A DNA stretch of 32,000 nt, taken from Nitrospira sp. GTDB taxonomy: Bacteria; Nitrospirota; Nitrospiria; Nitrospirales; Nitrospiraceae. Positions within the stretch are counted from its first letter, which is position 1. Each line of letters starts with the position of its first letter. The notes beneath the pieces were generated by a model. The model was not told the DNA's origin, searched no databases, and saw nothing but the letters and a program-made list of their open reading frames with translations. Positions 7,330-30,496 of this stretch are shown here, piece by piece. Made by a program: the position numbers and the translations under genes. The stretch spans positions 281,938-313,937 of the forward strand of contig JARFXP010000004.1 of assembly GCA_029194675.1 (NCBI GenBank), in the 5' to 3' direction.

Positions 7330-7406
<77 letters not shown>

Positions 7407-7771
7407 AATCTTACTCTTCTCGTCTTTCTCTTCAGCCTGATTCAATACCACTGCAACGGAACCAGCGGACTTGTCCGTTCGAAACCCATTACATAAAAAC
7501 GAAGGGGGCTGGCTCGGATCGGAAGGCTATGGGGTGCGTCCTCTCAAACGCCTCTCTAGAAGATTAGGAGCCGCGGACCGGGAGAGAGTGCCCGGCGGTC
7601 GGTCATCAGCCTAGCGGCTCCAGACGGAAACTTTACCCTGTCCATGGAGAATGAGAAAAGGGGTTGGTGTTGATATGGATACTGGGTGTCGAATGCGGAT
7701 GTTATTTGAATCCATACCCAGGTTGCGCTACTGTTTTCAATAGCTTAGTACACATATCGGAGCCTACACAC

Positions 7772-8770
7772 ATGACCACTATCAACCTGGGGCGGCTTCA
7801 AAGCGTAGACCTGCGTGAGGCTTGGACATCCGAGACCAGTGACTTCACACCGTGGTTGGCTCAAGAAGAAAATCTGAAACTACTTGGTGAAACGATCGGG
7901 ATTGAATTGGAACTGGATTCACAGGAAACCGAAGTTGGGCCGTTTCGTGCCGATATTCTGTGCAAGGATACCGCCACCGATAATTGGGTCTTGATCGAAA
8001 ACCAGCTTGAGCGCACCGATCATTCACATCTCGGACAGTTACTCACCTATGCCGCAGGGCTGAATGCCGTTACCATTGTGTGGATTTCGGAACGCTTTAC
8101 CGAGGAACACCGCGCAGCCTTAGATTGGCTGAATGAACGCACCGACGAAAAAATAAATCTCTTCGGGCTCGAAATTGAGTTGTGGCGGATCGGCACTTCT
8201 CCAATTGCTCCAAAATTTAACATTATCAGTCAGCCAAACGATTGGTCGCGCACGGTCAAACAAGCCGCCGTTGGAGGGGGCGAGGTTTCAGAGCACAAAC
8301 AGCTTCAACTTCGTTTCTGGACGGAGTTTAGGAACTACATGGAGTCTAAAAAGAGCTTCGTGCGTTGTCAGAAGCCATTGCCTCAACATTGGACCAACCA
8401 TGCGATTGGCCGATCAGGCGTACATCTCGCTTCGATTCTCTCGATTTGGAATTCTGAAACAAATGCGAAAGGGGCAGAGATTCGCGCTGAGCTGTACCTG
8501 GACGGGCCGAATGCGAAGCAGGAATTTGCGTTGCTAGCAAAGCAGAAGGATTCCATCGAAACATCGCTAGGCTTTTCGCTCACATGGTACAACCCTGAAG
8601 GCCAAGCAAGCTGCCGCTTGTACACGAGACAGAATGCCGACTTTCTGGATGAAAATTTATGGCTGCAACAGTTTGAATGGCTACGACAACGACTCGAAAT
8701 CATGCATAAGGTGTTTGCACCTCTTGTTAAGAATTTGAAACAAGAGCCGGAAGACCATAGAATGGCCTGA
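7772..8770 (+). CDS. PD-(D/E)XK nuclease-like / DUF4268-like protein
   Basis: The ORF track starts at 7664. I prefer ATG 7772 (MTTINLGRL) because GGAG lies 9 nt upstream. FRADILCKD...WVLIENQLERTDHSHLGQLLTYAAG matches the restriction-endonuclease-like N-terminal module I remember fused to DUF4268. Family assignment is from memory. Confidence 0.7.
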   Translation: MTTINLGRLQSVDLREAWTSETSDFTPWLAQEENLKLLGETIGIELELDSQETEVGPFRADILCKDTATDNWVLIENQLERTDHSHLGQLLTYAAGLNAVTIVWISERFTEEHRAALDWLNERTDEKINLFGLEIELWRIGTSPIAPKFNIISQPNDWSRTVKQAAVGGGEVSEHKQLQLRFWTEFRNYMESKKSFVRCQKPLPQHWTNHAIGRSGVHLASILSIWNSETNAKGAEIRAELYLDGPNAKQEFALLAKQKDSIETSLGFSLTWYNPEGQASCRLYTRQNADFLDENLWLQQFEWLRQRLEIMHKVFAPLVKNLKQEPEDHRMA

Positions 8771-8869
8771 GCACCGTTTATGCCTCAGATAGCTGATTGA
8801 CCGCTCGCTACCAATCCTCGTGGGGCAATTCACATCATCACAACCATGGTCACCGATGGGGGGATAATG

Positions 8870-8891
8870 CTCTTGTCTTCGACAACAAGAG
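8870..8891 (+). terminator. possible hairpin downstream of the DUF4268-like gene
   Basis: CTCTTGT-cttcgaca-ACAAGAG forms a 7-bp stem, followed by ATTGTTCC. The T-tract is weak. Confidence 0.25.
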
Positions 8892-8955
8892 ATTGTTCCT
8901 GAAATGCACTCCCCATTTCTTATCCGGCTAATTGTGCGCAATAGGAGAATCCGCG

Positions 8956-10164
8956 ATGACGAGGAAAACAGTGAAGCCCGAATCTCAGGCCGCCAGAACG
9001 CTAGTGACTGAGCCTTATGACGAAGACCTACAGTGGGATGACGAAATCCATCAGGATATTTCACCTGGCGGGGAATCTGAAGTTGTTGTTTATTCGCGCG
9101 ACTGGACCATTGCAACAATCATTCACCAGATTGAGCAGAAGAACATTGATTTAAACCCAAAATTTCAACGCCGTAACGCATGGAATGACGATAAACGAAG
9201 CATGTTAATTGAATCACTTATCGCGGGGCTTCCTGTGCCCGAAATAGTATTAGCCGAAGATCCCAATAAGCGGAAGGCATTTATTGTCATTGATGGGAAA
9301 CAGCGGCTTCTAACAATCGCAGGGTATGTGGACCCAACAGTTGAATATTGGGGAAAAGCCGAACTAAAGAAGCTACAGCTTCGCAAGGAGTTGAATACAA
9401 AGACCTACGAGCAGCTTAAATCTGAAAACGCTTTAGCGGATGAATACAGAGAATTTATGAACGCCGATGTTCGTTGCACGATCATTTCTAATTTCAAATC
9501 AGACGACACCCTCTACGACATATTCTACCGCCTAAACACCGGTTCGGTACCTCTTAGCACGCAAGAACTAAGGCAGGTCCTGCACAAAGGACCTTTCGCC
9601 GACTACCTGATTCAGATAACGAATACGACTGAACCTTTGCATCGTATCATGAGGCTGAATGGCCCTGACACCCGGTTAAGGGATGTCGAAATAGTGCTGC
9701 GCTTCATAGCAATTGTTTTGTTTGGCCCTGAATACGAAGGCAACCTAAAAAAGTTTCTTGATGAGGCGATGAAGAGAGTGACTACCGATTGGACAAGATT
9801 AGAGCCAATTGTGGCAAAAATTTACAGCGACATGAATTGCGCAATTACTAATCTCGTTAAAGTCCTTGGCGAGAAAGCTGTGGGAAGGAAGTTTGTAGAT
9901 GGTGATTGGGAAGGGCGATTCAATCGGGCTCTTTTTGAGGTAGAGGCATTCTATTTTCGGCTAATTCCTGATGCCAAGATCGCTGGTGGAAAGCGGAAGT
10001 TTGTTGCGGGTCTACAAAAGCTGTTTGATAACCCAGAGTTCAGGGCTTCAGTCGAAGCTACTACTAAAACAAAAGATCGCTACGAACTGCGTTTTCGTCG
10101 TTTCCAAGAACTTGTGAACGCATCATTTGGTACCAACATTAACGAACTCCCCATCGTAGCCTAA
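8956..10164 (+). CDS. DUF262 (ParB/Srx-like, GmrSD N-terminal type) domain protein without recognisable DUF1524/HNH domain
   Basis: The ORF track starts at 8932. ATG 8956 is preceded by AGGAGA. The motif run is DLNPKFQRRNAWNDDKRSMLIESLIAGLPVPEIVL...FIVIDGKQRLLTI, a DGQQR-type motif. The C-terminal half is helical and I could not find a His-Me finger. Confidence 0.75.
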   Translation: MTRKTVKPESQAARTLVTEPYDEDLQWDDEIHQDISPGGESEVVVYSRDWTIATIIHQIEQKNIDLNPKFQRRNAWNDDKRSMLIESLIAGLPVPEIVLAEDPNKRKAFIVIDGKQRLLTIAGYVDPTVEYWGKAELKKLQLRKELNTKTYEQLKSENALADEYREFMNADVRCTIISNFKSDDTLYDIFYRLNTGSVPLSTQELRQVLHKGPFADYLIQITNTTEPLHRIMRLNGPDTRLRDVEIVLRFIAIVLFGPEYEGNLKKFLDEAMKRVTTDWTRLEPIVAKIYSDMNCAITNLVKVLGEKAVGRKFVDGDWEGRFNRALFEVEAFYFRLIPDAKIAGGKRKFVAGLQKLFDNPEFRASVEATTKTKDRYELRFRRFQELVNASFGTNINELPIVA

Positions 10165-10187
10165 TTACTCGCTCTATCGGAGTTGCT

Positions 10188-10814
10188 ATGGTTGACGTGA
10201 ATGCGCTTCACGGGGAGCTGACGAGGTATGTTGGTGAATTAGCTGCAAAGTTTGTCAATCAGTACATACCTGCCAATCCAGAGACTTCTCCTGACACCTA
10301 TGCCCATGATGTCAAGGCGTACTGCATACTCGCGCATGCGGCGTTTGAAGACTTTATTGAAGAAGTTGCTCTGAGTCTGACAGATTACGCCGCAGAACAG
10401 TATCGTTCCCAGCGAAAAATAAGTGATGTAACCCTCGCTCTCCTTTGTCGGTATGGCGCTAAGCTGAAAATCGACGATGATGAGACTTCTATTGAGATAA
10501 AACCTTTCGATTATTTAAGGAACCTTGTCGAAGAAGCAAAGACATCCTTTTCTAAGGAAATACATAAGAATCATGGCGTATCTATCCTCTATCTTAGGAG
10601 TCTGTTAATACCGGTTGCTATTGAAATTACGCAGGACGCGAATCAACTGAACTCTCTAAGGAAGCTCTCAGAAGGACGAGGCGCGTACGCTCACAAAGCC
10701 CGAGTGAGGAGTGTCCTAGCTCCCGAAGATGCAAAGCGATATGTTGAGGATGTTCTGGCTCTTTGCGATGATGTGCGGGCAAAGGCTGTGTCAGAAATCG
10801 CACGACTTCAATAA
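10188..10814 (+). CDS. HEPN-domain protein (MAE_28990/MAE_18760-like), putative RNase partner of DUF262
   Basis: 208 aa, with GGAG upstream and 23 nt after the DUF262 stop. Near the C-terminus R164-GAYA-H169 gives an Rx4H HEPN motif. The family name is recalled, not tested. Confidence 0.6.
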   Translation: MVDVNALHGELTRYVGELAAKFVNQYIPANPETSPDTYAHDVKAYCILAHAAFEDFIEEVALSLTDYAAEQYRSQRKISDVTLALLCRYGAKLKIDDDETSIEIKPFDYLRNLVEEAKTSFSKEIHKNHGVSILYLRSLLIPVAIEITQDANQLNSLRKLSEGRGAYAHKARVRSVLAPEDAKRYVEDVLALCDDVRAKAVSEIARLQ

Positions 10815-10859
10815 ACGCTTGAGATGGGTTTACATCCATCCCGCACATCCCCGATCTAG

Positions 10860-10932
10860 CGCGGAGATTTACGCAGTCAACGCGATGGTCACCGAGGGGT
10901 TAAATCGTGACCGAATTGACCCCCAGCAACAA
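10860..10932 (+). repeat. tRNA-fMet-like degenerate repeat, copy 1
   Basis: cgcggagatttacgcagtcaacgcgatggtcaccgaggggttaaatcgtgaccgaattgacccccagcaacaa aligns by eye along its whole length with 11519-11591. Its 3' part resembles the T-arm/acceptor end of the tRNA at 7330-7406. Confidence 0.5.
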
Positions 10933-10989
10933 GGGGGATGAAGGAGGTTTCCGTACTACGAGATGCTTGATAATCTTCAGACAGTAAAT

Positions 10990-11145
10990 CTATTCGCATC
11001 GCGGGATACTGCGATCGCATTCGGGATGGCCGAAGCCGAAGGTCAGAATGTGCGTATCCACCTGGACAGTGCGACCCAACAGTGTTAGACAAAGCACCCC
11101 GATAGCCAGAGAAGACCATCCCACCATAGACCAGAAGCGTCTCAT
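10990..11145 (-). CDS. speculative small secreted peptide (51 aa)
   Basis: Below the ORF-track size cutoff. My translation is MRRFWSMVGWSSLAIGVLCLTLLGRTVQVDTHILTFGFGHPECDRSIPRCE. GGGAG lies 5 nt upstream and the N-terminus looks like a signal peptide. No homology is recognised. Confidence 0.2.
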   Translation of the reverse strand: MRRFWSMVGWSSLAIGVLCLTLLGRTVQVDTHILTFGFGHPECDRSIPRCE

Positions 11146-11518
11146 GTGTCTCCCTAAATTGTCGTGAATTAACCAGTCCTCACCATCAGTTTAGGAATTT
11201 GAATGAAGTTGTCAAGAATTCCATGGAAATGCTTCGATCTACTCTATTGCGGTGTGCGCCTCGATTGCTCTCTGCAACTCAGATATGGGTTCGTCATATT
11301 CGTGTCCCAATCGTGCGTTGAGTGGAAGAAATCTGTATGCACGGGGGCGGTCCCATGGGAAGCGAGTGGACTCCAGTGCAGAGGGAAACCGTTCGGGAAG
11401 GAAGGCCGTGGGGGGATCTCCGGGGCGGCGGATATGTTCCTGACTTAAAACGAGAGGACAATCGGTCGATCAAGAGCTTGTCTCATATCGCAAATCAAGC
11501 TACCTTCGCCACTCCTCG

Positions 11519-11591
11519 CGCGGGAATTCATGCCGTCAATGGGATCGTCAGCGAGGGGTAAAATCGTGACCGAATCGCCTCCCCGCAACCA
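11519..11591 (+). repeat. tRNA-fMet-like degenerate repeat, copy 2 (pseudo-tRNA / old att remnant)
   Basis: 73 nt: CGCGGGA...GTCAGCGAGGGGTAAAATC[gtgaccgaatcg]CCTCCCCGCAACCA. The 5' 7 nt and the 3' ~40 nt match the tRNA-fMet acceptor/T-arm, with a ~12-nt insertion. The middle is not foldable as a canonical cloverleaf. Confidence 0.5.
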
Positions 11592-11674
11592 ACTCTTTCC
11601 ACGGATTTTCCCAATCCCCCGACGCAATTGGGTTACGGCGCAGGCGCTTCAGTTCACACCAATGAGGTGTGCGC

Positions 11675-11716
11675 ACAAAAAACGGCCCGGAACCCCTTGA
11701 TTGGAGTTCCGGGCCG
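11675..11716 (-). terminator. rho-independent terminator belonging to the amoC 3' fragment
   Basis: 11-bp perfect stem CGGCCCGGAAC / GTTCCGGGCCG (11683-11693 and 11706-11716). On the minus strand it is followed by a TTTTTT run (A-run 11677-11682). Confidence 0.6.
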
Positions 11717-11750
11717 AATGCTCACCCCTCTAACAGGACCGTTTAGTACC

Positions 11751-11903
11751 TTAGTACCCGGTCTTGGCTCCCGTGCCCACCTGGCTGGGGAACGGATCCA
11801 GGATGCTCTTTGGCGCGTTGTTCCAGATCACGTCCGCCAGATTCGACATCCGGCTCACGATCTGCGCCGCCATGCCCCAGCGGCCCCGAACAACCCGCAC
11901 TAA
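11751..11903 (-). pseudogene. amoC: truncated amoC 3' end (last ~40 codons plus stop)
   Basis: The minus-strand translation ...[39 protein letters not shown] matches the C-terminus of the intact AmoC at 13292-14101 (...[39 protein letters not shown]). Nucleotide homology stops near 11903, and an indel breaks the frame at its 5' edge. Confidence 0.8.
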
Positions 11904-12088
11904 GAGACGTCGGTGCCGACACAATGCCAACAGGCTATGACACGAATGAGGATAGGTCAGGTAAGTTGCCGACGGAATTCCTAATCAGGGGGACACTGTA
12001 TTCGAAGGTATCACCCACTCACACAGGAGCTTAGAGCGAAGAGAGCAGTTGAGACGGTGATCATTGCAGCAACTCTCTGGGAGCGTTA

Positions 12089-12409
12089 TCAAGCAGTCAC
12101 GAGTGCTTCTCTCCGTTGCTCGATATGCTTCCTGACTTTCACCGACAAAGCTTGTTCGGCAAGCTGCAGCTCATAGGTCTTCTGCAGATTCATCCAGAAT
12201 TCCGCCGTGGTGTTGAAGAACGTGGCCAGACGCACTGCGGTATCTCCGGTGATGCCACGCTGCCCTTTAATAATTGCCGTAATTCGATTCGCCGGCACGT
12301 CGAGGGCCTTGGCTAGTGTGTTGGCATTAATCGGCGGATCTGATGGCTTCATGAACTCTTCCAGCAACATTTCACCTGGATGAATTGGTCGCATGCCGTT
12401 TTTTGTCAT
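12089..12409 (-). CDS. higA: HigA-family antitoxin (XRE HTH)
   Basis: The ORF track starts at 12493. The in-frame ATG at 12409 gives MTKNGMRPIHPGEMLLEEFMKP...LAKALDVPANRITAIIKGQRGITGDTAVRLATFF, a typical HigA. It begins 13 nt after the higB stop. Confidence 0.85.
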   Translation of the reverse strand: MTKNGMRPIHPGEMLLEEFMKPSDPPINANTLAKALDVPANRITAIIKGQRGITGDTAVRLATFFNTTAEFWMNLQKTYELQLAEQALSVKVRKHIEQRREALVTA

Positions 12410-12422
12410 GATGTGCTCTCCC

Positions 12423-12701
12423 TCAGTGGTAGTCGGTGATCTCCACGTCGTGGGGACCATCAGCCATCCACACAAAACAAATCCTCCACTCATCGTTAAT
12501 TCGAATACTGTGTTGTCCGATCCGATCCCCTTTTAATTTTTCAAGTCGATTTCCTGCCGGTGAGAGGAGATCTTTCAGATCAGCCGCGTTGTCGAGCATC
12601 GTGAGTTTCCTCTCGGCCACCTTTCTAAAACTGGAAAACTCCTTCACAGTCTTTCCGGCGAAGAACTGTTCCGTCGTCTTGTCGCGAAAACCACGAATCA
12701 C
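12423..12701 (-). CDS. higB: HigB-like toxin (RelE/ParE superfamily, plasmid maintenance system killer)
   Basis: 92 aa: MIRGFRDKTTEQFFAGK...LKGDRIGQHSIRINDEWRICFVW. The toxin-first order is typical of higBA. Confidence 0.85.
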   Translation of the reverse strand: MIRGFRDKTTEQFFAGKTVKEFSSFRKVAERKLTMLDNAADLKDLLSPAGNRLEKLKGDRIGQHSIRINDEWRICFVWMADGPHDVEITDYH

Positions 12702-12890: not shown

Positions 12891-12940
12891 CTCATAACCC
12901 AACGGTCAGAGGTCCAAATCCTCTCCCCGCGACCAAATCT
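12891..12940 (+). repeat. direct repeat of the 3' 50 nt of tRNA-fMet (att-type remnant)
   Basis: ctcataacccaaCggtcagaggtCcaaatcctctccccgcGaccaaatct compared with tRNA positions 7362-7411 shows three mismatches by eye. Confidence 0.85.
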
Positions 12941-13136: not shown

Positions 13137-13206
13137 CTCGACCACTTCAATTAAACATCAACCCCTGCAAGTGAACCAACGGACTCGTCCATTCGAAACC
13201 CATTAC

Positions 13207-13252
13207 ATCAAAAAAGTAGAGGGCTGGCTCGGATATCCGAACCAGCCCTCTA
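13207..13252 (-). terminator. rho-independent terminator of intact amoC
   Basis: Long hairpin TAGAGGGCTGG-c-TCGGA-ta-TCCGA-a-CCAGCCCTCTA (13217-13252). On the minus strand it is followed by CTTTTTTGA. Confidence 0.8.
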
Positions 13253-13291: not shown

Positions 13292-14101
13292 TTAGTACCC
13301 TGCCTTGGCGTTGGGGTTCACCTGGCTGGGGAACGGATCCAGGATGCTCTTCGGCGCGTTGTTCCAGATCACGTCCGCCAGATTCGACATCCGGCTCACG
13401 ATCTGCGCCGCCACGCCCCCGGCCGCCCCGAACAAGCCGCACCAGCCCAACGTCACGAAGCCCCAGTGTAACGGCGCCGAGAACAGCTCATCCACGAACC
13501 AGAACGCATGGCCCCACTCATTGAGTCCCACGTTCGGCAGAATGAACATCGGCCCCACCACCGCCGCCACCAGCGCAAAGGAGGTCGCCTGGTTATAGAG
13601 CGGCAGCCGCGTCTGCGCATACAGATAACTGGATACGCCGCACGTGATGTACAACGGGAACGTCCCGTAGAACGCCACAATGTGGCTCGCCGTGAAGCTC
13701 GTGTCCCGGATGATCACTTGGTGCCACGCCGCATCCTGCTCCAACGTGTAGCTGCCTGCGTAGTACACGCCCCAGATGTAACAGGCCAGCCAGCCCATCC
13801 AATAGAAATACCGCTTCAACTCCAGTTTGGGGTCGAGATTGGCCAGGTTGCGGTCTCGGGTGGTCCAGATCCACCCCACCGACACCGCAAAGAACAGGGC
13901 GTTCGCCACAATGTTAAATCGCCACAGCCCCATCCACACGGAATCGAATTCCGGCGTCATCGAATCCAACCCGTGCGAGTACCCAAACGCCCGTTGATAC
14001 AGAACCCAAAAGATGCCCATCATCAACATCGCCGCCCACCCGATCTTCCACGGCTTCGAATCGTACCACTGCGAAATGTCATACCCTTTATCGCTTGCCA
14101 T
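13292..14101 (-). CDS. amoC: ammonia monooxygenase subunit C (intact copy)
   Basis: 269 aa and polytopic. Strong resemblance to AmoC/PmoC as I remember them ([54 protein letters not shown]). AAGGGAGG lies 7 nt upstream. Confidence 0.92.
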
Positions 14102-14148
14102 AGTGTGACCTCCCTTGTGTTATATGAACCTCCGTATCGACTGGATCT

Positions 14149-14778
14149 TCACGAATGGCTGGAGATCCGCCAGTTCCTCCATCGCTTTGATTTCGACAGC
14201 TCATAGCCAATCAATGCGAGGAGAAGGATGACGGTCAGCGGCCCGATCGCTTTTCGGGCGATCATCGCGTAGTCGATCTGCTGTACCCGCAACAGATAGG
14301 ACGAAGGGCTGAATCCTTCCGGCGTGATAATGACCTTATAGATACCCTTGGCCAGCTGAGCTTCGCCTCTCACCACTCCATCCGGATGGGTCGCCGGAGG
14401 CCAGTAGGCCACCGTCTCATCTTCTGCGGTCTCGCTTAGGCCTCTCACGACCCGTACTCCCACGGGCATGTTGCGCAGACCAAAATCGACGAGATCAACC
14501 ACAAGGAAGGTGTCTCCCTCACCAGGAATGTCTGTGCAGTACTGGGCTCTCGCCTCATGTTGCGGCTGATAAGCGTTGAAATGGACGAGGTTTCCTCCGA
14601 CCCGTCGGACACAGCTATCCTCCTCAATCGTCACATTGCCATGAGCGCCTGCTAAGCTCGGTAGGAGGATGGTAAGAAACAGGACGAGAACACCGATGAC
14701 TGGATGGGAAAGAGCCTTTCGTTTGGCTCTCAGCGTACTGAAACTCAATACGATCACTGCAACAAACAACGTCGTCAT
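14149..14778 (-). CDS. unknown periplasmic protein with cleavable signal peptide, mature N-terminal His and C-terminal TM anchor
   Basis: The ORF track starts at 14826. ATG 14778 has GGTGAGGG upstream. The signal peptide reads ...VLVLFLTILLPSLAGA|HGNVTIEEDSC. A ~150-aa domain follows, which I guess is beta-rich from sequence. The C-terminal helix is GPLTVILLLALIGYEL followed by a KSKRWR tail. The stop is 47 nt upstream of the amoC start. Confidence 0.65.
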   Translation of the reverse strand: MTTLFVAVIVLSFSTLRAKRKALSHPVIGVLVLFLTILLPSLAGAHGNVTIEEDSCVRRVGGNLVHFNAYQPQHEARAQYCTDIPGEGDTFLVVDLVDFGLRNMPVGVRVVRGLSETAEDETVAYWPPATHPDGVVRGEAQLAKGIYKVIITPEGFSPSSYLLRVQQIDYAMIARKAIGPLTVILLLALIGYELSKSKRWRNWRISSHS

Positions 14779-14835
14779 AACCCTCACCTTCCACGAAGAG
14801 CATACTCCTCGATATATGAAGGGCACATTAGAAAT

Positions 14836-14855
14836 TCATGAAGAATTCTTCATGA
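14836..14855. promoter_or_regulatory. 20-bp perfect palindrome between ftsH and the unknown gene
   Basis: TCATGAAGAATTCTTCATGA is its own reverse complement. It lies 98 nt after the ftsH stop and 57 nt before the 14778 start. It could be an operator or a weak AT-rich terminator hairpin. Confidence 0.4.
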
Positions 14856-14953
14856 TCCCGCATATCTGAGCGTGTATCTAATTTAACTCATTCACTGTCA
14901 GGCATTCCCATGACACCGGCTCACATTGCAAGAGTCGGCATGTCCCTCACCTG

Positions 14954-16759
<1,806 letters not shown>

Positions 16760-16843
16760 TGGCAGCCTCTCGCGATGATCCGTCGCATCAGATAACTTAT
16801 CTATGGGAAGCTCTTTCCCGGAGTTTGAAGATCTGTGTGACGT

Positions 16844-17695
16844 TCATGCTTTCCCCCCGATTTTTGCCTTATCGCCGTGAGCCAACGTGGTGTATGCAAA
16901 TACGTCGTACACCTTCGTGGTCCGCTGTCTGTCATCCGTGAGGTAGAAGTACGAGGTACAGAAGAACTTCCCGAACTGCCACCAGAGAATGTACATCAAC
17001 GACGAGGCGAACGCGGCGAAGAAGGAGGAGATCATCGTGCTGTGCCCGCCGAAGGTCCGCAGCGAGCCCACCTCGATCATCCGAATATACTCCGGCGTCC
17101 CGGTCCGGACATACGCGAAGCCCATGTAGTCCGCCCAGGAGAGCAAGGTGCCATCGACGACGAGCGGCGTATGGCTATAGGCAAAGATGGCCCAGTTGGT
17201 CGGATAGAACAATGCCGCAAACATCCAGGCCCCGATCACCGCCGTCAATGTCCAGTTTCTGGTCAACAACAGCACGATGTCCAGGACGATGGCACTCGGC
17301 AGCAGCGTGGACGGCATGACGAAGTTGTAGGGGTAGTTCGACCACCACCACCAGGCAGCCACGATGGTGACCCACTTCCCCGCGAGCAACGCCAGGATGG
17401 TGATCGTGGCCCCAAACGGCTGGCGGTAGTTCACCCAATTGTAGTACTGCAGGGCGGCGCAAAAGGTAATGGCCGTGATCGGCGTCACGATCGGCCACCA
17501 CTGCCGATCCTTCCAGTCCAACCAGAAGTCCCAGTCGCCCGCCAGCAGGTCGAAGTGCATGTGGAACGTGCCCACGATGGTGACGAACAAGATCGGAATG
17601 AAATAAATGTAGTCGATGTGCCGGGACATCGCGACGCCTTCCGGCGGCAACTTCGAGGCCTTAATAATCTCGTCGGTTCTAAACATAAGTGACAT
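16844..17695 (-). CDS. amoA: ammonia monooxygenase subunit A
   Basis: 283 aa, collinear with Nitrosomonas AmoA as I recall it. Matching stretches include [53 protein letters not shown] and [29 protein letters not shown] lies upstream, so the start may be ATG 17695 or 17686. Confidence 0.93.
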
Positions 17696-17804
17696 CCTCC
17701 GTCAGTTCAGCCGGCTGAGGCCAGGCCGGCGCTCCGTGCCTCGGAGCACCGGACCCCTCCCTCAACGCCGACTGCTCGTTATGTGGACTGCTCGCGATTC
17801 CTGC

Positions 17805-18620
17805 TTAGTACCCTGCCTTGGCGTTGGGGTTCACCTGGCTGGGGAACGGATCCAGGATGCTCTTCGGCGCGTTGTTCCAGATCACGTCCGCCAGATTCGA
17901 CATCCGGCTCACGATCTGCGCCGCCACGCCCCGGCCGCCCCGAACAAGCCGCACCAGCCCAACGTCACGAAGCCCCAGTGTAAGGGTGCTGAGAACAGCT
18001 CATCCACGAACCAGAACGCATGGCCCCACTCATTGAGTCCCACGTTCGGCAGAATGAACATCGGCCCCACCACCGCCGCCACCAGCGCAAAGGAGGTCGC
18101 CTGGTTATAGAGCGGCAGCCGCGTCTGCGCATACAGATAACTGGATACGCCGCACGTGATGTACAACGGGAACGTCCCGTAGAACGCCACAATGTGGCTC
18201 GCCGTGAAGCTCGTGTCCCGGATGATCACTTGGTGCCACGCCGCATCCTGCTCCAACGTGTAGCTGCCCGCGTAGTACACGCCCCAGATGTAGCAGGCCA
18301 GCCAGCCCATCCAATAGAAGTACCGCTTCAACTCCAGTTTGGGGTCGAGATTGGCCAGATTCCGGTCCCGGGTGGTCCAGATCCACCCCACCGACACCGC
18401 AAAGAACAGGGCGTTGGCCACGATGTTAAATCGCCACAGCCCCATCCACACGGAGTCGAATCTCCGGCGTCATCGAATCCAACCCGTGCGAGTACCCAAA
18501 CGCCCGTTGATACAGGACCCAAAAGATGCCCATCATCAGCATCGCCGCCCACCCGATCTTCCACGGCTTCGAATCGTACCACTGCGAAATGTCATACCCT
18601 TTCTCGCTTGATGCCGCCAT
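17805..18620 (-). pseudogene. amoC: second amoC copy interrupted by two frameshifts (+1 near 18462, -1 in a C-run near 17929-17932)
   Basis: The ORF track splits it into 18426-18620 ([24 protein letters not shown]...) and 17909-18451. Nucleotide alignment to 13292-14101 shows aatCtccgg versus aattccgg, and CCCC versus CCCCC. The stop TAA at 17805-17807 is in the original frame. Confidence 0.8.
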
Positions 18621-18786: not shown

Positions 18787-18813
18787 GTGCCATAAGGCAC
18801 TTTCCTAAAGTGC
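18787..18813. promoter_or_regulatory. overlapping inverted repeats upstream of amoC(psi)-amoA (candidate operator)
   Basis: GTGCC-ataa-GGCAC (18787-18800) overlaps GCACTTT-cct-AAAGTGC (18797-18813, a 7-3-7 perfect repeat). It lies in the 243-nt gap between the response-regulator stop and the amoC start. Confidence 0.35.
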
Positions 18814-18863
18814 AAAAGGAAATTCCATAGGAGGGATCCGAAGAGAATGAAAAGGCTTCGAAG

Positions 18864-19514
18864 CTATTCAGATGATGAGGGGGTGAGGCCGTGGGCCAGC
18901 GCGTACTTTGTGAGTTCAGCCGTCGTATGGAGGCCCAGCTGCTCCATCAGCTTCGACTTATGATACTCGACCGTCTTCGGAGAGAGCCCCAGCGTTGACG
19001 CGATTTCTTTGAGAGTCAGCCCTTCGGCCACCAATTGGAGGATCTCTCGCTGGCGCACCGGCAAGTGATTCTGGCGACCGATGTTCGGCTCTGTTTCAGA
19101 GATCGCGGATTGAACAAGATCCTTTGCAATCAAAGAAGTGACGTAATAATTGCCGTTCTTCACCGCCTCGATGGCCAATGACAGTTCGGATCCGGCCGAC
19201 CGTTTCAGCAGGTAGGCCGATGCGCCGGCCTTGAAGGCCTGATTGACATAGTCCGGATCGGCATGCACTGTTACAAAAATCAATCGAGCCTGCGGGACGA
19301 TCTTTCGCAAACGGCGCGCCGCATCAAGGCCGTTCAGTTGGGGCATTGAAATATCCAGGACCACGATGTCCGGACGTAATCGTTTCGCCACATCCAGCAA
19401 AGACCGACCGTCCTCCACGCACCCCACCACCTGACAATGCTCTTCCAGCAACTTTTTGAAACCTTCCAGCACCAGTGCATGGTCATCCGCCAAGAGCACG
19501 CGAGGCTTGCTCAT
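18864..19514 (-). CDS. NarL/FixJ-family response regulator (REC + LuxR-type HTH)
   Basis: 216 aa. The receiver domain shows LLADDH and VVLDISMPQLNG. The C-terminal HTH reads REILQLVAEGLTLKEIASTLGLSPKTVEYHKSKLMEQLG. Its start overlaps the kinase stop (ATGA). Confidence 0.9.
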   Translation of the reverse strand: MSKPRVLLADDHALVLEGFKKLLEEHCQVVGCVEDGRSLLDVAKRLRPDIVVLDISMPQLNGLDAARRLRKIVPQARLIFVTVHADPDYVNQAFKAGASAYLLKRSAGSELSLAIEAVKNGNYYVTSLIAKDLVQSAISETEPNIGRQNHLPVRQREILQLVAEGLTLKEIASTLGLSPKTVEYHKSKLMEQLGLHTTAELTKYALAHGLTPSSSE

Positions 19515-20611
19515 GCACGCTCCTGTTTGAACGGCACCCAGGCGCAGACACGTGTCCCCTCGCCCGGTGTCGATTGTAGATCCAGGGTTCCGGCGACCAG
19601 GAAAACCCGTTCCTTCATGCTCAACAAACCGAGGCTTCCTCGCCGACCGTCGTACTGATTCACGTCAAATCCCACTCCATCATCGCTGATCATAAGTTGG
19701 AGACCGTCTCGCAATCGCCGAAGTTCGACGCGAATATTTTTTGCCCTGGCATGGCGGGAAATGTTTGCTAAGCCTTCTTGTGCCACGCGGTACAAGCAGG
19801 TCACGATGTCTTGCGCCACGTGTTCAGGTATATCGTGACATCTAAACCGGGCACCGATACCGGTGCGGGCTTGAAAGTCATCGACGAGGCGTCGGAGCGC
19901 AATAGCTAAGCCCAGGTCGTCAAGGATGGATGGGTGGAACTGATAGGCCAAGCGGCGAACATTTTCGGAAAGTTCGACGATACGGTTATGAATCGTGTGC
20001 ACCATGCTGACCGTACGGGCAGGGGCGTCGGAAAGCTGTTGTTCCAACATTTCGATGTCGATCGACAAGAGCGCCAGGCGTTGATTGATGTCGTCATGCA
20101 GATCGCGCGAAATCCGCCGTCTCTCCTCCTCCTGAAGGCGAAGGAGCTGCGAGGCAAGCAGGCGGAGGTCCCGACGGTTGGCTTCGAGCGATTGTTCAGT
20201 ATCGATTCGTTTTGACACTTCGCTGACGAGCGCGTTATTGACAACTAGAAGCTCTTCGCTGCGTGCATGTAAGCGCGCCGCCCAACCTTCATCGAGCCGC
20301 TGGATCTCCTCTTCACGTTCACGACGTTGTAGAAGGTACCAGATGGGCAGCCCGATTAAGGCCATGCTCACGACGCGAATAACTAAAGGCTTCCACGAAG
20401 ATTCGTCGTAAGCCTGAGGTGAGAGGGCGGTGACATCTTCCCTTGCCACAGATATGAGGTTTTCCATCTCGAACGGCGTCGATATTTGTTGGGGAAACAG
20501 CGACAGGAAAGATTTCGCAACTTCCGTGGGGAGATGGAGAATCAGCAATCCGACCATCAATACGACGATACTGCCGGCAAAAACCCCGGTTCTAGCTCGT
20601 GATACAAGCAT
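19511..20611 (-). CDS. membrane sensor histidine kinase (HisKA_3 / NarX-DegS type)
   Basis: 366 aa. Two TM segments bracket a ~55-aa loop. Then come a coiled coil, the H-box ISRDLHDDINQRL, and HATPase motifs EGLANISRHA, ISDDGVGF and GSLGLLSMKER. Confidence 0.88.
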   Translation of the reverse strand: MLVSRARTGVFAGSIVVLMVGLLILHLPTEVAKSFLSLFPQQISTPFEMENLISVAREDVTALSPQAYDESSWKPLVIRVVSMALIGLPIWYLLQRREREEEIQRLDEGWAARLHARSEELLVVNNALVSEVSKRIDTEQSLEANRRDLRLLASQLLRLQEEERRRISRDLHDDINQRLALLSIDIEMLEQQLSDAPARTVSMVHTIHNRIVELSENVRRLAYQFHPSILDDLGLAIALRRLVDDFQARTGIGARFRCHDIPEHVAQDIVTCLYRVAQEGLANISRHARAKNIRVELRRLRDGLQLMISDDGVGFDVNQYDGRRGSLGLLSMKERVFLVAGTLDLQSTPGEGTRVCAWVPFKQERA

Positions 20612-24699: not shown

Positions 24700-26013
24700 C
24701 TACTCTTGCTTTTTTCCTGACACAATACCAGATGCTTCTACTTCAACCTCAGGAATCCTATACTTTAACCAGCAGCGGTTAGCCGTTGAGGAAAAGCTAA
24801 AGGCCTTACAATTTTTATCAAGCGCACATTCGTTAAGGCATACATCTTCACTTCCTTGGCCTTTAACTGGAAAGTCTCTGTAGTCATCACCATATAAGTC
24901 CCATCCGCTTTTGGGCTCCTCCATCTTGCCAGGTTCGGAAAAAGGCAAATAATAGACAGTGTTTAAGGTATGATAAAGTGCTATATTATTTGGTGCCTCA
25001 ATAATGCATCTGCTACCGTCCTCTCTGATTCCCGCAAAAGCTTTCGTGTGGTAAGGACACTTGCCATTCTCCTTGCTATAAAACAATTGCCCTTCCGTAC
25101 GATGGAACTTCGGAGGCCGGGTTGAGGGATCAATATCCATAACTTCACATTCCTCCATTTTGTGTTCCCTCATTTTGTGCGTGCCCCCAAATGGGCAGGG
25201 CTCCTTACCTGTAAATTCTACAAACTTTTTGGCTGGTGTTGGCTTTGTCCTAATAGTTCCCGGAGTGTAATGAGCAAAGTAGTAACCTAGTATCGCAACA
25301 GATAAAATGAGAATTACCAACGCTATTTGTGTTATTTGGAATTTAAGGTTCTTTGGTCTCTTACTGTTGCCAGCTTTTTCAAGCTCAGTTAGAGCAGTAC
25401 CTTTAAGAAATGGTATCCATACATTTTGAACATGAAGGCTATAAAAGTAGTCGGAGTGCTTAAACCCATCGCGGTGGATGTCTGCTACGATTCCATCAAC
25501 CTTGTCACTGAAGCCCTCTACTCCGGAGGGTCCAGCATCTTTCACAATCCAGGCCACCAACTTAACCCAAACATCTTTTGACCCGGATTCATTAAGGACT
25601 CCACGCACCTGACCACGTTCGACTATTTTCGCCCAAGGATAATTCTTTTCCAGAATTGATCCACATAGTATGAGCCTGTCCAGCTTCAATTCCTCATATT
25701 TGAGAAGAGCCTTTGCGACTATATATGTTCCAAAGCTGTGTGCGATGACAGAAGGTGGTTGATGCTCAGTACTAATATAGTTGGTCACCCAATCTCTAAA
25801 CTTGTCGATTTCTCTATCCCGCCTCCTAGGGTTAAGGAACATTGCTAGTTTAAGGTAACCATAATCAAAAGGACTGTGCAGTAGATGATGTTCTTCTAAC
25901 GTATCATTCAGCTCTTTCTGCCAGGCCCCAGTTGTACGAATACCGTGAAGACTAATAACGCGACGAGCGAAAGTCGATGTTTGAGATGCTGTCGTGAAAC
26001 TTAGTTCACCCAT
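24700..26013 (-). CDS. membrane protein: N-terminal alpha/beta-hydrolase (AHSFG nucleophile elbow), one TM helix, Cys-rich region and C-terminal PAN/Apple-like domain
   Basis: 437 aa. It has ISLHGIRTTGAWQ and VIAHSFGTYIV (GxSxG-like). The TM helix is ITQIALVILILSVAILGYYFA. The C-terminal CLNECALDKNCKAFSFSSTANRCWLKY fits the PAN/Apple cysteine pattern. GGGGAAGAG lies upstream, and the sequence is AT-rich. Confidence 0.7.
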   Translation of the reverse strand: MGELSFTTASQTSTFARRVISLHGIRTTGAWQKELNDTLEEHHLLHSPFDYGYLKLAMFLNPRRRDREIDKFRDWVTNYISTEHQPPSVIAHSFGTYIVAKALLKYEELKLDRLILCGSILEKNYPWAKIVERGQVRGVLNESGSKDVWVKLVAWIVKDAGPSGVEGFSDKVDGIVADIHRDGFKHSDYFYSLHVQNVWIPFLKGTALTELEKAGNSKRPKNLKFQITQIALVILILSVAILGYYFAHYTPGTIRTKPTPAKKFVEFTGKEPCPFGGTHKMREHKMEECEVMDIDPSTRPPKFHRTEGQLFYSKENGKCPYHTKAFAGIREDGSRCIIEAPNNIALYHTLNTVYYLPFSEPGKMEEPKSGWDLYGDDYRDFPVKGQGSEDVCLNECALDKNCKAFSFSSTANRCWLKYRIPEVEVEASGIVSGKKQE

Positions 26014-29131: not shown

Positions 29132-30496
29132 TCAGGGATTGCTCCTGTCCGGCATGGCTCCAAGAGCTCCATTCGGTACTGTGCGCACAGCCTCTTCGGC
29201 AAAACCCAGTTCGCGAAATTGTTCAGGAGTGGAAATCCAATATTTAGTACCATTCCGGATCAAATAGATTTTTTGATCGGTCAGTTCTTTGATCAACGTG
29301 CCGTCGCGTGGCACCAGCGGCACCTGGGTCAACGCACCATGCGGCACAGTCACAGCAAGTCTGTCTCCAAACAAGAGCCGATACGTCGGCGGATCAGGAA
29401 TATAGAATTTCGCACCCCCATAGACGATATGAATGCGATCGTCCAACTCTTTAATCAAGGTACCGTCTCGCGGTATCAACGGTACCTGGGTCAATGCACC
29501 ATGTGGCACAGTCATAACAGGGCGGTCTCCACACAAACGCTGAAACGTCGGCGGATCGGGAATATAGAACTTCGCCCCGCCATAGACGATATGAATGCGA
29601 TCGTCCAACTCTTTGATTAACGTGCCGTCACGCGGTATCAGCGGTACTTGGGTCAACGCCCCGTCGGGCACAGTCACAATTGAAGGATTCTCTCCAAACA
29701 GCTTCTTAAGGGTGGGCGGATCGGGGATGTAAAACTTTGCGTCCCCATAGGTTACGTGAATCCGGCCGTCGTCCAACTCTTTGATCAACGTGCCGTCTCG
29801 CGGCACCAGGGGCACCTGAGCCAATGCGCCATGCGGCACAGTGACAACAGGGCGGTCTCCAAATAAGCGCTGAAACGTCGGTGGATCAGGAATATAGAAC
29901 TTCGCGCCGCCATAGACGACATGAATGCGGTCGTCCAGTTCCTTGATCAACGTGCCATCGCGTGGCACCAACGGCACTTGCGTCAAGGCGCCGTCGGGCA
30001 CGGTCACGATCGTGGGATTACTGCCGAACAACCGGTGTAGAGTCGGCGGATCCGGAATGTAGAACTTCGCCCCGCCATAGATGACATAGATTTCGTCTCT
30101 CGACTTTTCCTTTATTGGCACACCTCCAATAGCTACTCCGATGGTCGGTAGTGCCGTCGAAACTATCTGTTGAGCAATCCCCTCATGGCCGGCAGGGTTG
30201 GGATGGAGAGAGCCGAGTGAAAACTGAAACCCTGGTGGGAGGCTGTCACGAAAGGAAAAACCTACTTCATATGGACCCTGAATGTTCCGAGCGTCCTCTT
30301 CTGTCCGAAACCAACGTGCATTTCCAGCGCAGTATCCGTGAGCTCGTGACCAGGCCTGCACCGGAACTCGGACCCATCCATGTCGTTCTGCTGCTGCGCC
30401 TATCGCCGCATTGAGCGGGATAACCACTTCACGTTCTGCCCATTTCGCTGTTAAAGGATGCAAAAAAGGATTCGAGAATTTCCGTTCTCCCCACAA
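29132..30496 (-). CDS. C-terminal part of secreted SGNH hydrolase: catalytic His block plus six ~48-aa tandem repeats
   Basis: SLHPNPAGHEGIA corresponds to SGNH block V. Repeats of the form ..YGGAKFYIPDPPT..LFG..P.VTVP.GAL.QVPL.PRDGTLIKELDD follow. The ORF overlaps the upstream ORF by 46 nt in another frame. Confidence 0.7.
   Translation of the reverse strand: MWGERKFSNPFLHPLTAKWAEREVVIPLNAAIGAAAERHGWVRVPVQAWSRAHGYCAGNARWFRTEEDARNIQGPYEVGFSFRDSLPPGFQFSLGSLHPNPAGHEGIAQQIVSTALPTIGVAIGGVPIKEKSRDEIYVIYGGAKFYIPDPPTLHRLFGSNPTIVTVPDGALTQVPLVPRDGTLIKELDDRIHVVYGGAKFYIPDPPTFQRLFGDRPVVTVPHGALAQVPLVPRDGTLIKELDDGRIHVTYGDAKFYIPDPPTLKKLFGENPSIVTVPDGALTQVPLIPRDGTLIKELDDRIHIVYGGAKFYIPDPPTFQRLCGDRPVMTVPHGALTQVPLIPRDGTLIKELDDRIHIVYGGAKFYIPDPPTYRLLFGDRLAVTVPHGALTQVPLVPRDGTLIKELTDQKIYLIRNGTKYWISTPEQFRELGFAEEAVRTVPNGALGAMPDRSNP
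29282..30094 (-). repeat. coding tandem repeat, ~144-147 nt unit, five highly similar copies (a sixth divergent copy reaches ~29147)
   Basis: The periodicity is visible in the DNA (recurrent ggaatatagaacttcgc / atgaatgcgatcgtccaactctttgat) and in the protein (residues ~135-405 of the 454-aa ORF). Confidence 0.85.

Follow-up and report, generated by a model that had tools for sequence, protein, structure and literature searches.

An accessory amoC-amoA-ftsH locus carrying a remnant of amoB in clade A comammox Nitrospira

Why should a gene for the protease FtsH follow amoA at the very place where the canonical bacterial operon, amoCAB, continues with amoB? The question is raised by a stretch of 32,000 nucleotides (nt) from a Nitrospira sp. 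genome (GenBank assembly GCA_029194675.1, contig JARFXP010000004.1, positions 281,938 to 313,937 of the forward strand), hereafter the window, in which two directly repeated amoC genes bracket amoA, ftsH, and one further gene. Ammonia monooxygenase (AMO), whose subunits the amo genes encode, starts nitrification; it resists purification and is easily inactivated, and its assembly, maintenance, and replacement are little understood. A preliminary description of the window considered either an extra amoCA set detached from amoB or an organism whose amo genes are organized differently altogether. Comparison with other genomes bears out the former, as four relatives hold both an accessory and a canonical locus and the junction behind amoA keeps ~30 nt of amoB, and it lends no support to the latter. 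The parts of the accessory locus, in window coordinates and as they follow one another on the minus strand, are listed below.

19511–20611, minus strand: sensor histidine kinase (HisKA_3 and HATPase_c in Pfam; N-terminal membrane segments), which opens the conserved block
18864–19514, minus strand: NarL/LuxR-type response regulator (receiver and GerE helix-turn-helix domains; Pfam, NCBIfam)
18787–18826, minus strand: conserved non-coding element of 40 nt, a candidate operator or promoter
17805–18620, minus strand: upstream amoC with two indels, split into open reading frames (ORFs) of 64 and 180 amino acids that both match Pfam AmoC
16844–17695, minus strand: amoA, intact (Pfam AMO, 3e-99; TIGR03080, 358 bits)
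16815–16847, minus strand: fossil of the amoB 5′ end, recognized by alignment of the sequence past the amoA stop
14954–16759, minus strand: ftsH, here ftsH2 (FtsH_ext, AAA, AAA_lid_3, and Peptidase_M41; TIGR01241, 851 bits, cutoff 600)
14149–14778 or 14826, minus strand: amoE2 (209 or 225 amino acids), of the AmoE/AmoD/PmoD family by homology to the amoE-amoD-amoD2 trio and to PmoD (6CPD)
13292–14101, minus strand: downstream amoC, intact, 269 amino acids (Pfam AmoC, 2e-105; NF041641, 341 bits, cutoff 319)
13217–13252, minus strand: terminator-like hairpin, 40 nt past the downstream amoC
11675–11900, minus strand: third amoC remnant, found by repeat search and alignment

The positions and minus-strand orientation originally given for the five genes all agree with the ORFs and with the Pfam and NCBIfam matches, and the 84-nt gap from the end of amoA to the beginning of ftsH is correct as well. 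The gene left as "unknown" is a paralog of the AmoE/PmoD family; also missed were the amoC 3′ fragment, the amoB remnant, and the kinase/regulator pair with its conserved element. AmoA passes the curated models PF02461 (332 bits, cutoff 27.5), TIGR03080 (357.5, cutoff 318), and NF041557 (350, cutoff 290), has 90 or more columns invariant across sequences from complete ammonia oxidizers (comammox) and betaproteobacterial ammonia-oxidizing bacteria (beta-AOB), and starts, according to its homologs, with MFRT at the ATG at 17686. Its identity is 99% to the AmoA of Nitrospira sp. WA-bin32, 86–88% to those of the metagenome-assembled genomes (MAGs) CG24B and Rifle RCA, labeled as clade A, and ~60% to AmoA from Nitrosomonadaceae. 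The FtsH of the window matches a protein of an NCBI Nitrospira MAG at 100% identity. Together, these identities assign the source of the window, on sequence grounds, to clade A comammox Nitrospira.

The downstream amoC is uninterrupted, and its product passes PF04896 (352 bits) and NF041641/AmoC_BACT (341 bits, cutoff 319). The upstream copy, 97.7% identical to it, is interrupted by an extra G at ~18462 and by a run at 17929–17932 that is one G short. Both indels are unseen in the intact copy of the window and in eight copies from relatives. They are the sole frame disruptions noticed among the ~25 larger ORFs of the window and are located inside the repeat; the upstream amoC may be a recent pseudogene or a consensus error.

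In canonical amoCAB, amoB stands directly past amoA, and the start codon of the one overlaps the stop codon of the other, an arrangement that the window locus lacks. As the preliminary description had stated, amoB is absent from the 32 kb: three comammox AmoB queries gave no tblastn match in the window (best E 0.75), and Pfam scans of its other large ORFs showed no Monooxygenase_B domain. An alignment of AmoA served as query against the species of GTDB, each represented by one genome, and genes were mapped by tblastn. Among the resulting 66 Nitrospira AmoA loci (L007–L072), amoB overlaps the amoA stop in 58, and ftsH takes its place in six (L007, L011, L067, L037, L047, and L070). Further cases, such as L167 and L170, came from context look-ups of FtsH relatives. 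The comparison of synteny in comammox genomes that had been proposed as a check thus finds the same amoA-ftsH junction in at least ten other Nitrospira assemblies, with L173 among the carriers and L172 beginning inside the amoB fossil. Three of the junctions lie on contigs of 4.1–4.7 Mb, namely CP126121.1 (4.69 Mb, L167), OZ245008.1 (4.14 Mb, L047), and JARYII010000004.1 (4.41 Mb, L170), and the carriers span 80–94% amoA nucleotide identity to the window. L173 begins in the amoA 3′ end and L172 within the junction, as expected for short-read contigs broken at repeats.

The complete five-gene block, with amoE2 and amoC behind ftsH, is shared by the window, L007, L011, L167, and L170. The window is collinear with L007 for 11 kb at 89% identity, up to exactly the stop codon of the downstream amoC. 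The gene order of L167 and L170 is that of the window and includes the upstream genes for ATP-grasp, Peptidase_Mx, LMWPc, TtcA, the kinase, and the regulator; L170 also matches the window downstream (tRNA-Met, fmt, rsmB, and rpe). Both kinds of locus are present in MFD08447 (accessory L011, canonical L010), MFD08497 (L067 and L009), CBDCWN (L037 and L034), and the chromosome OZ245008.1 (L047 at 0.47 Mb, L048 at 0.89 Mb). A reduced version is seen at L171 (SWDS01000002.1, 5920–8785), where a MarR gene and amoC are followed by 253 nt with the amoA end and the amoB fossil, and then by ftsH.

What lies between amoA and ftsH points to the origin of the locus. The ATG of the amoB fossil overlaps the amoA stop (ATGA) and is followed by ~10 amoB-like codons; the remnant now reads as a mini-ORF of 16 codons that ends at 16797. 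When seven ftsH-type and seven amoB-type loci are aligned, the sequence past the amoA stop opens in both with ATGAACGCCAAACACGTCTTTAAACTCTGGG or a close variant and diverges thereafter. L173 and L171 keep the fossil as well, and L172 keeps part of it. Within a genome, the accessory and canonical loci have a unit of ~1.78 kb in common, from the amoC start to 7–33 nt past the amoA stop. Because the amoB 5′ fossil sits at every junction and the ~1.78-kb unit matches the canonical locus, we identify the accessory locus from its sequence as a duplicate of amoCAB that was cut ~30 nt into amoB, in the signal-peptide region, and joined to a duplicate of a Nitrospira ftsH. That every junction breaks at the same point of amoB speaks for a single and old origin. 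We hold this structural and evolutionary account of the locus with high confidence. Speculatively, the window-type locus could be a trimmed tandem duplication of an L047-type unit.

The two copies of the genes have since remained alike. In three of the four genomes with both loci, the amoA pairs differ at 1–2 of 849 nt (99.8–99.9% identity); L037 and L034 differ at 71 nt (91.6% identity), with one amino-acid change, and in all four the AmoA proteins differ by 0–1 residues. Similarly, amoC copies are 97.7–99.6% identical within a genome, as against at most 94% between genomes. In contrast to these near-identical genes, identity between the amoC-amoA spacers of accessory and canonical loci drops to 61–67% for three of the four pairs. 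This combination therefore indicates gene conversion limited to the coding sequence (CDS) and selection that keeps the proteins identical, whereas the accessory locus retains an upstream region and an amoC-amoA spacer of its own. By the same comparisons, the accessory amoA shows itself to be maintained and not decaying.

The homology of the two amoC repeats in the window is, as first described, essentially confined to the CDS; it begins ~20 nt ahead of the ATG and ends with the stop codon, between unrelated flanks. The suggestion that these repeats are substrates for recombination fits the within-genome identity of amoC, the duplicated amoC 3′ end, and the variant architectures of the locus; the deletion or amplification of the amoA-ftsH segment that had been envisaged was seen in none of the compared loci. 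The duplicated 3′ end is the third amoC remnant (11675–11900), which consists of the last ~150 nt of amoC and ~75 nt of 3′ flank, the latter 81% identical to the sequence 3′ of the downstream amoC in L011 and L167. Between this fragment and the intact downstream amoC lie 1.4 kb with HigBA and a tRNA-Met remnant; the fragment is a scar left by recombination at amoC.

The surroundings of this remnant have features of their own. A tRNA-Met gene (7330–7406, plus strand) lies beside fmt, and the 3′ ~45 nt of the tRNA gene recur at 12891–12940 (94%); a 53-nt stretch just past the gene (7447–7499) recurs at 13161–13213 (87%). These repeats resemble the att-type ends of an insertion of ~5.5 kb that separates the amo locus from the tRNA-Met gene. 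In L170, where tRNA-Met and fmt have the equivalent position, genes for DUF1989 and TupA stand in place of the insertion. Between the repeats, a defense-type island of low GC content (45–50%, 7664–12701) encodes DUF4268 (7664–8770), a GmrSD N-terminal domain (8932–10164), a HEPN RiboL-PSP protein (10188–10814), and a HigB/HigA toxin-antitoxin pair (12089–12701); no integrase was seen in it. Downstream of the HEPN gene, the island contains a 75-nt direct repeat (10856–10930 and 11515–11589; 80%, 659 nt apart).

The FtsH encoded at the accessory locus has the full build of the family: two N-terminal transmembrane (TM) segments with a periplasmic domain between them, an AAA+ module, and an M41 peptidase domain with HEAGH. 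Because CP126121.1 carries both this amo-linked ftsH (L167) and a housekeeping ftsH in the context tilS-hpt-ftsH-folP-glmM (L168), we regard the amo-linked gene, judging by sequence and context, as a second copy distinct from the housekeeping one. Neither that context nor the single-copy status of a housekeeping ortholog applies to it. We also considered whether the ftsH of the window might be the housekeeping gene with amoCA inserted between tilS and ftsH; this was rejected, as the upstream PP-loop gene encodes TtcA and CP126121.1 has a separate housekeeping ftsH.

As proteins, the two paralogs are ~84% identical; they have the same set of domains, and neither lacks a catalytic motif. The housekeeping FtsH is nearly invariant across species, whereas the amo-linked FtsH varies more and evolves faster. 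In a neighbor-joining tree, the main amo-linked group forms its own clade beside the Nitrospira housekeeping FtsH. The amo-linked signature is present in 106 of the best 120 database matches, and most of these 106 were typed by this sequence signature and not by genomic context; Walker A and B, the second region of homology, the pore loop, and HEXXH are kept in 105–106 of the 106. Of the 19 positions that set the paralogs apart, seven fall in the first 125 residues (TM1-periplasmic-TM2) and three in the linker after TM2, which is one residue shorter in the amo-linked FtsH. Across lineages, the identity of ftsH2 falls to 72% for nucleotides and 78% for protein, with the junction retained. No ftsH was found within 10 kb of canonical amoCAB, either in the Nitrospira loci or in 14 Nitrosomonadaceae-type (betaproteobacterial AOB) loci. 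A metagenome scan for FtsH returned almost exclusively generic FtsH of 56–64% identity, and the closest matches (L087, 75%; L088, 70%) had no amo genes nearby.

The gene behind ftsH, amoE2, encodes a protein 52–71% identical to the first product of the amoE-amoD-amoD2 trio beside the canonical comammox amo genes and 26–39% identical to the other two. Its only match in the PDB is PmoD (6CPD), with an E-value of 1e-6 for the single sequence and 6e-8 for a profile, and no Pfam or NCBIfam model matches it. We assign it by homology to the AmoE/AmoD/PmoD family. The protein has N-terminal hydrophobic segments and a predicted cleavage site (AGA|HGNV), followed by what would be a beta-rich domain in the periplasm and a membrane helix at the C-terminus. 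The predicted mature N-terminus is a histidine, which is invariant, and at least 90 columns are invariant in 18 homologs, including Cys56 and His66. These two residues align with the Cys and His ligands of CuA, the copper site of PmoD; the position of the axial Met of PmoD (in M-I-H) is occupied by Leu, and a review describes this Met as not conserved in AmoD/AmoE. Homologs number in the hundreds, all of them labeled hypothetical, one being from Candidatus (Ca.) N. nitrificans. An AlphaFold2 model built with 18 close homologs is unreliable (mean predicted local distance difference test score, pLDDT, of 57); it has eight strands and a C-terminal helix at residues 170–206, and Foldseek with this low-confidence model gave no match in the PDB below E 0.08. 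Compared with 17 of 17 aligned homologs, AmoE2 of the window is ~13–15 residues short between the two N-terminal hydrophobic segments.

Several features suggest that the locus is controlled on its own. A kinase/regulator pair lies directly upstream of amoC in seven loci, the regulator reading frame overlapping the kinase gene by 4 nt. Orthologs of the kinase occupy the equivalent place in L007, L011, L067, L046, L167, and L170 (73–93% identity), the regulator of L037/L047 is 76–77% identical, and against NCBIfam the kinase has sub-threshold matches only, of the MctS/UhpB/LiaS/NarQ type. Between regulator and amoC, the 40-nt element (GGAATTTCC-N16-AGTGCCTTATGGCAC, with two small palindromes) is the sole strongly conserved block of the spacer in seven genomes. 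A pattern search found it once per locus in all seven kinase/regulator-linked loci, always between regulator and amoC, and never upstream of a canonical amoC. At the other end, the hairpin at 13217–13252 combines a 16-bp stem with 10 G-C pairs and a T-run; it is likely, from its form and position, to be the 3′ end of the transcription unit, and no comparable hairpin lies between it and the upstream amoC. With this strong terminator aside, matches to promoter and terminator consensus sequences in the window were at chance level, and an Rfam scan of the window found tRNA only. The five amo-locus genes are co-oriented with short gaps, and a single, separately regulated transcript would be the simplest reading of the locus.

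What might such a transcript be for? The reading that we favor, which as a whole account of the locus we consider slightly more likely than not and for its proteostasis function alone a little short of an even chance, is that the locus is a separately controlled module for the supply of the AMO membrane subunits and for their proteolysis and clearance, that is, for AMO proteostasis. The adjacent two-component system would activate a single transcript that begins at a promoter close to the 40-nt element and ends at the terminator (13217–13252). This transcript would supply AmoC and AmoA, the polytopic membrane subunits of AMO, as well as AmoE2 and a dedicated membrane-anchored FtsH. FtsH2 would remove damaged or unassembled AmoA and AmoC, and newly made AmoA and AmoC would replace them, with the existing AmoB re-used. 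In the window itself, where the upstream amoC is broken, AmoC would derive from the downstream copy alone.

The behavior of AMO and of FtsH makes such a scheme conceivable. AMO loses its activity in light or through mechanism-based inhibitors and regains it through de novo protein synthesis, and the substrates of FtsH include polytopic membrane proteins that are damaged or unassembled, among them D1 of photosystem II and SecY. By analogy, the locus might serve a full AMO repair cycle, in which a two-component system that senses membrane stress induces the operon, FtsH2 extracts and degrades AmoA and AmoC, and AmoB is re-used; we offer this more specific version as a tentative possibility that is rather less likely true than not.

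A number of observations weigh against a dedicated proteostasis module. The part of FtsH2 in AMO is inferred from the linkage of the genes. The frameshifts in the upstream amoC of the window may signal that part of the locus is under relaxed selection, and the genomes in which a canonical amoCAB was seen in addition to the accessory locus are those of relatives, the window itself covering 32 kb. The architecture 3′ of ftsH varies, so that the constant core is just amoC, mostly amoA, the amoB fossil, and ftsH: L067 and L070 have no amoE2-amoC behind ftsH, L037/L047 have the order regulator-amoE2-amoC-amoA-ftsH with amoE2 upstream of amoC, and L171 has lost amoA while retaining amoC-ftsH. Finally, the main amo-linked clade does not include the FtsH of L037/L047, whose branch is longer, which leaves the monophyly of the paralog not firm, and the 106 amo-linked FtsH sequences were for the most part classified by signature, as said above.

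Of the other explanations, the one that survives best is a pure effect of gene dosage, in which the second amoCA set tunes or raises the synthesis of AmoC and AmoA and the FtsH carries out general quality control unrelated to AMO. It is in keeping with the identity of AmoA between the loci, which provides no new enzyme form, with the genes behind ftsH differing between genomes, and with the multiple amo copies usual in beta-AOB (L073–L078 represent genomes with two amoCAB loci each; see also Palomo et al). Dosage alone leaves unexplained why amoB never belongs to the copy. It also sits poorly with the junction of amoB fossil and ftsH, kept across lineages in spite of the divergence of ftsH2, with the absence of ftsH near any canonical amo locus, and with L171, which dropped amoA and retained amoC-ftsH. 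Because amoB is missing from every copy, AmoA is identical to the canonical one, and ftsH2 is linked exclusively to this copy, subunit replacement fits better, and we consider dosage as the whole explanation unlikely.

An improbable explanation, to our minds, is that the locus is a decaying by-product, a truncated operon duplicate that came to lie beside an ftsH duplicate by chance, has no function, and is being lost. The reduction of amoB to ~30 nt, the two frameshifts in the upstream amoC, the deletion of amoA in L171, and the amoC fragments and scars nearby are all what decay would leave behind. Against this, the frameshifts are confined to the window, and the locus persists in at least ten assemblies over 80–94% amoA identity to the window; furthermore, the 71 nt changes between L037 and L034 amoA amount to one amino-acid change, the FtsH2 motifs are intact in 105–106 of 106 sequences, the AmoE2 columns stay invariant in 18 homologs (at least 90), and a locus-specific non-coding element is conserved.

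A third idea, that AmoC and AmoA assemble with AmoE2 in the place of AmoB to give an AmoB-less enzyme, draws on the signal-type end of AmoE2 (AGA|HGNV), its invariant His, Cys56, and His66, the membrane helix predicted at its C-terminus, and the position of its gene between ftsH and amoC in five loci; it is very improbable, given that locus-bearing genomes also hold complete amoCAB with identical AmoA, that the loci L067, L070, and L171 are without amoE2, and that amoB at canonical loci is itself accompanied by an amoE-amoD-amoD2 trio. That the arrangement is an assembly artefact, with collapsed or chimeric amoC/amoA repeats and amoB really following amoA, has a negligible chance of being true and is refuted, because the same junction and fossil recur in independent assemblies (including CP126121.1, OZ245008.1, and JARYII010000004.1) and 11 kb of the window are collinear with L007, even though short-read MAG contigs often break at amoC/amoA, many loci begin inside amoC or just before amoA, many contigs with amo-linked ftsH span only ~3 kb, which equals the spacing of the repeats of amoA and amoC, and the indels of the upstream amoC could be polishing errors in a repeat. 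The misassembly that the preliminary description had wanted excluded is thereby cleared for the arrangement; for the two frameshifts, it is not.

Two further features of the window lie apart from the amo locus. A ~300-nt repeat occurs three times (72–81% identity) at 29277–30068, inside an ORF of 454 amino acids (29132–30496) that has no Pfam match and encodes an internally repetitive protein. An ORF of 437 amino acids (24700–26013) ends in a C-terminal PAN domain and lies in a region of locally low GC content (44% for 25001–26000, compared with ~55% elsewhere).

Beyond its possible function, the accessory locus has practical consequences. Where lineages carry two identical amoA, quantitative PCR of amoA and metagenomic counts overestimate cells. 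Short-read MAGs break at the repeats, so that the accessory locus, and even the canonical operon, is often missed or mis-binned. The conversion tracts, with homogenized CDS and diverged spacer, are a clean case of concerted evolution under selection for identical proteins. In addition, by coupling amoA/amoC copies, FtsH, a PmoD-family protein, and a sensor-regulator pair, the locus would provide a testable handle on AMO turnover in comammox.

How does this locus relate to what has been described? The preliminary description had allowed that the arrangement might prove to be a standard one, already described in close relatives. It is standard in public genomes of close relatives, and no paper describing it was found: our literature search returned no publication linking comammox amoA, or ammonia monooxygenase in Nitrospira, with ftsH. 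The locus is thus present in public genomes, undescribed as a unit as far as we searched, and is related to accessory and orphan amo copies. The canonical comammox amo region (amoCAB, amoE-amoD-amoD2, copCD, haoAB-cycAB, and ccm) resembles it in the amoC-amoA order, in a nearby amoE-type gene, and in an AmoA that is identical or nearly so within a genome. The accessory locus differs in having ~30 nt of amoB followed by ftsH, its own two-component system and element, and a diverged amoC-amoA spacer, and no hao, cyc, ccm, or copCD genes were found at it.

Comammox genomes are described by Palomo et al as generally having single amo copies. Ca. Nitrospira nitrosa is a comammox genome with two amoA and several amoC, as reported in PMC5596200 and PMC6365651 (van Kessel et al, 2015, cited therein). 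These papers give copy number only, with no mention of an ftsH, an amoB remnant, a regulator pair, or conservation across species. Loci of the L037/L047 type, whose AmoA is 88–89% identical to that of the window and similar to that of the nitrosa-like UW-LDO-01, show the form that such a second copy takes.

A different kind of additional amoC comes from the beta-AOB. Nitrosomonas europaea has an orphan amoC (amoC3), which Berube and Stahl are said to have proposed in 2012 as a subunit for stress response and recovery. The accessory locus is like it in holding additional amoC outside the main operon, which would be separately regulated and serve the stability or recovery of AMO. It is unlike it in that its amoC is neither a singleton nor divergent and comes with amoA, an FtsH paralog, and amoE2; in the window, both amoC copies lie inside an amoA-containing locus and are, as noted, nearly identical to each other.

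A further parallel, as an analogy of mechanism only, is the repair of photosystem II, which uses multiple psbA genes for identical or nearly identical D1 together with an FtsH protease. The proteins are unrelated, the psbA and ftsH genes of cyanobacteria are not adjacent, and AmoA and AmoC as substrates of FtsH are proposed by analogy. What the two systems would share are several gene copies for a damage-prone polytopic catalytic subunit, homogenized CDS with differing regulatory regions, and a membrane FtsH; four genomes indeed hold multiple copies for the same AMO subunits under what appears to be different regulation, as judged by spacer, upstream region, element, and regulator pair. If the proposed repair cycle is true, the accessory locus would be the copper-monooxygenase counterpart of D1 turnover in photosystem II.

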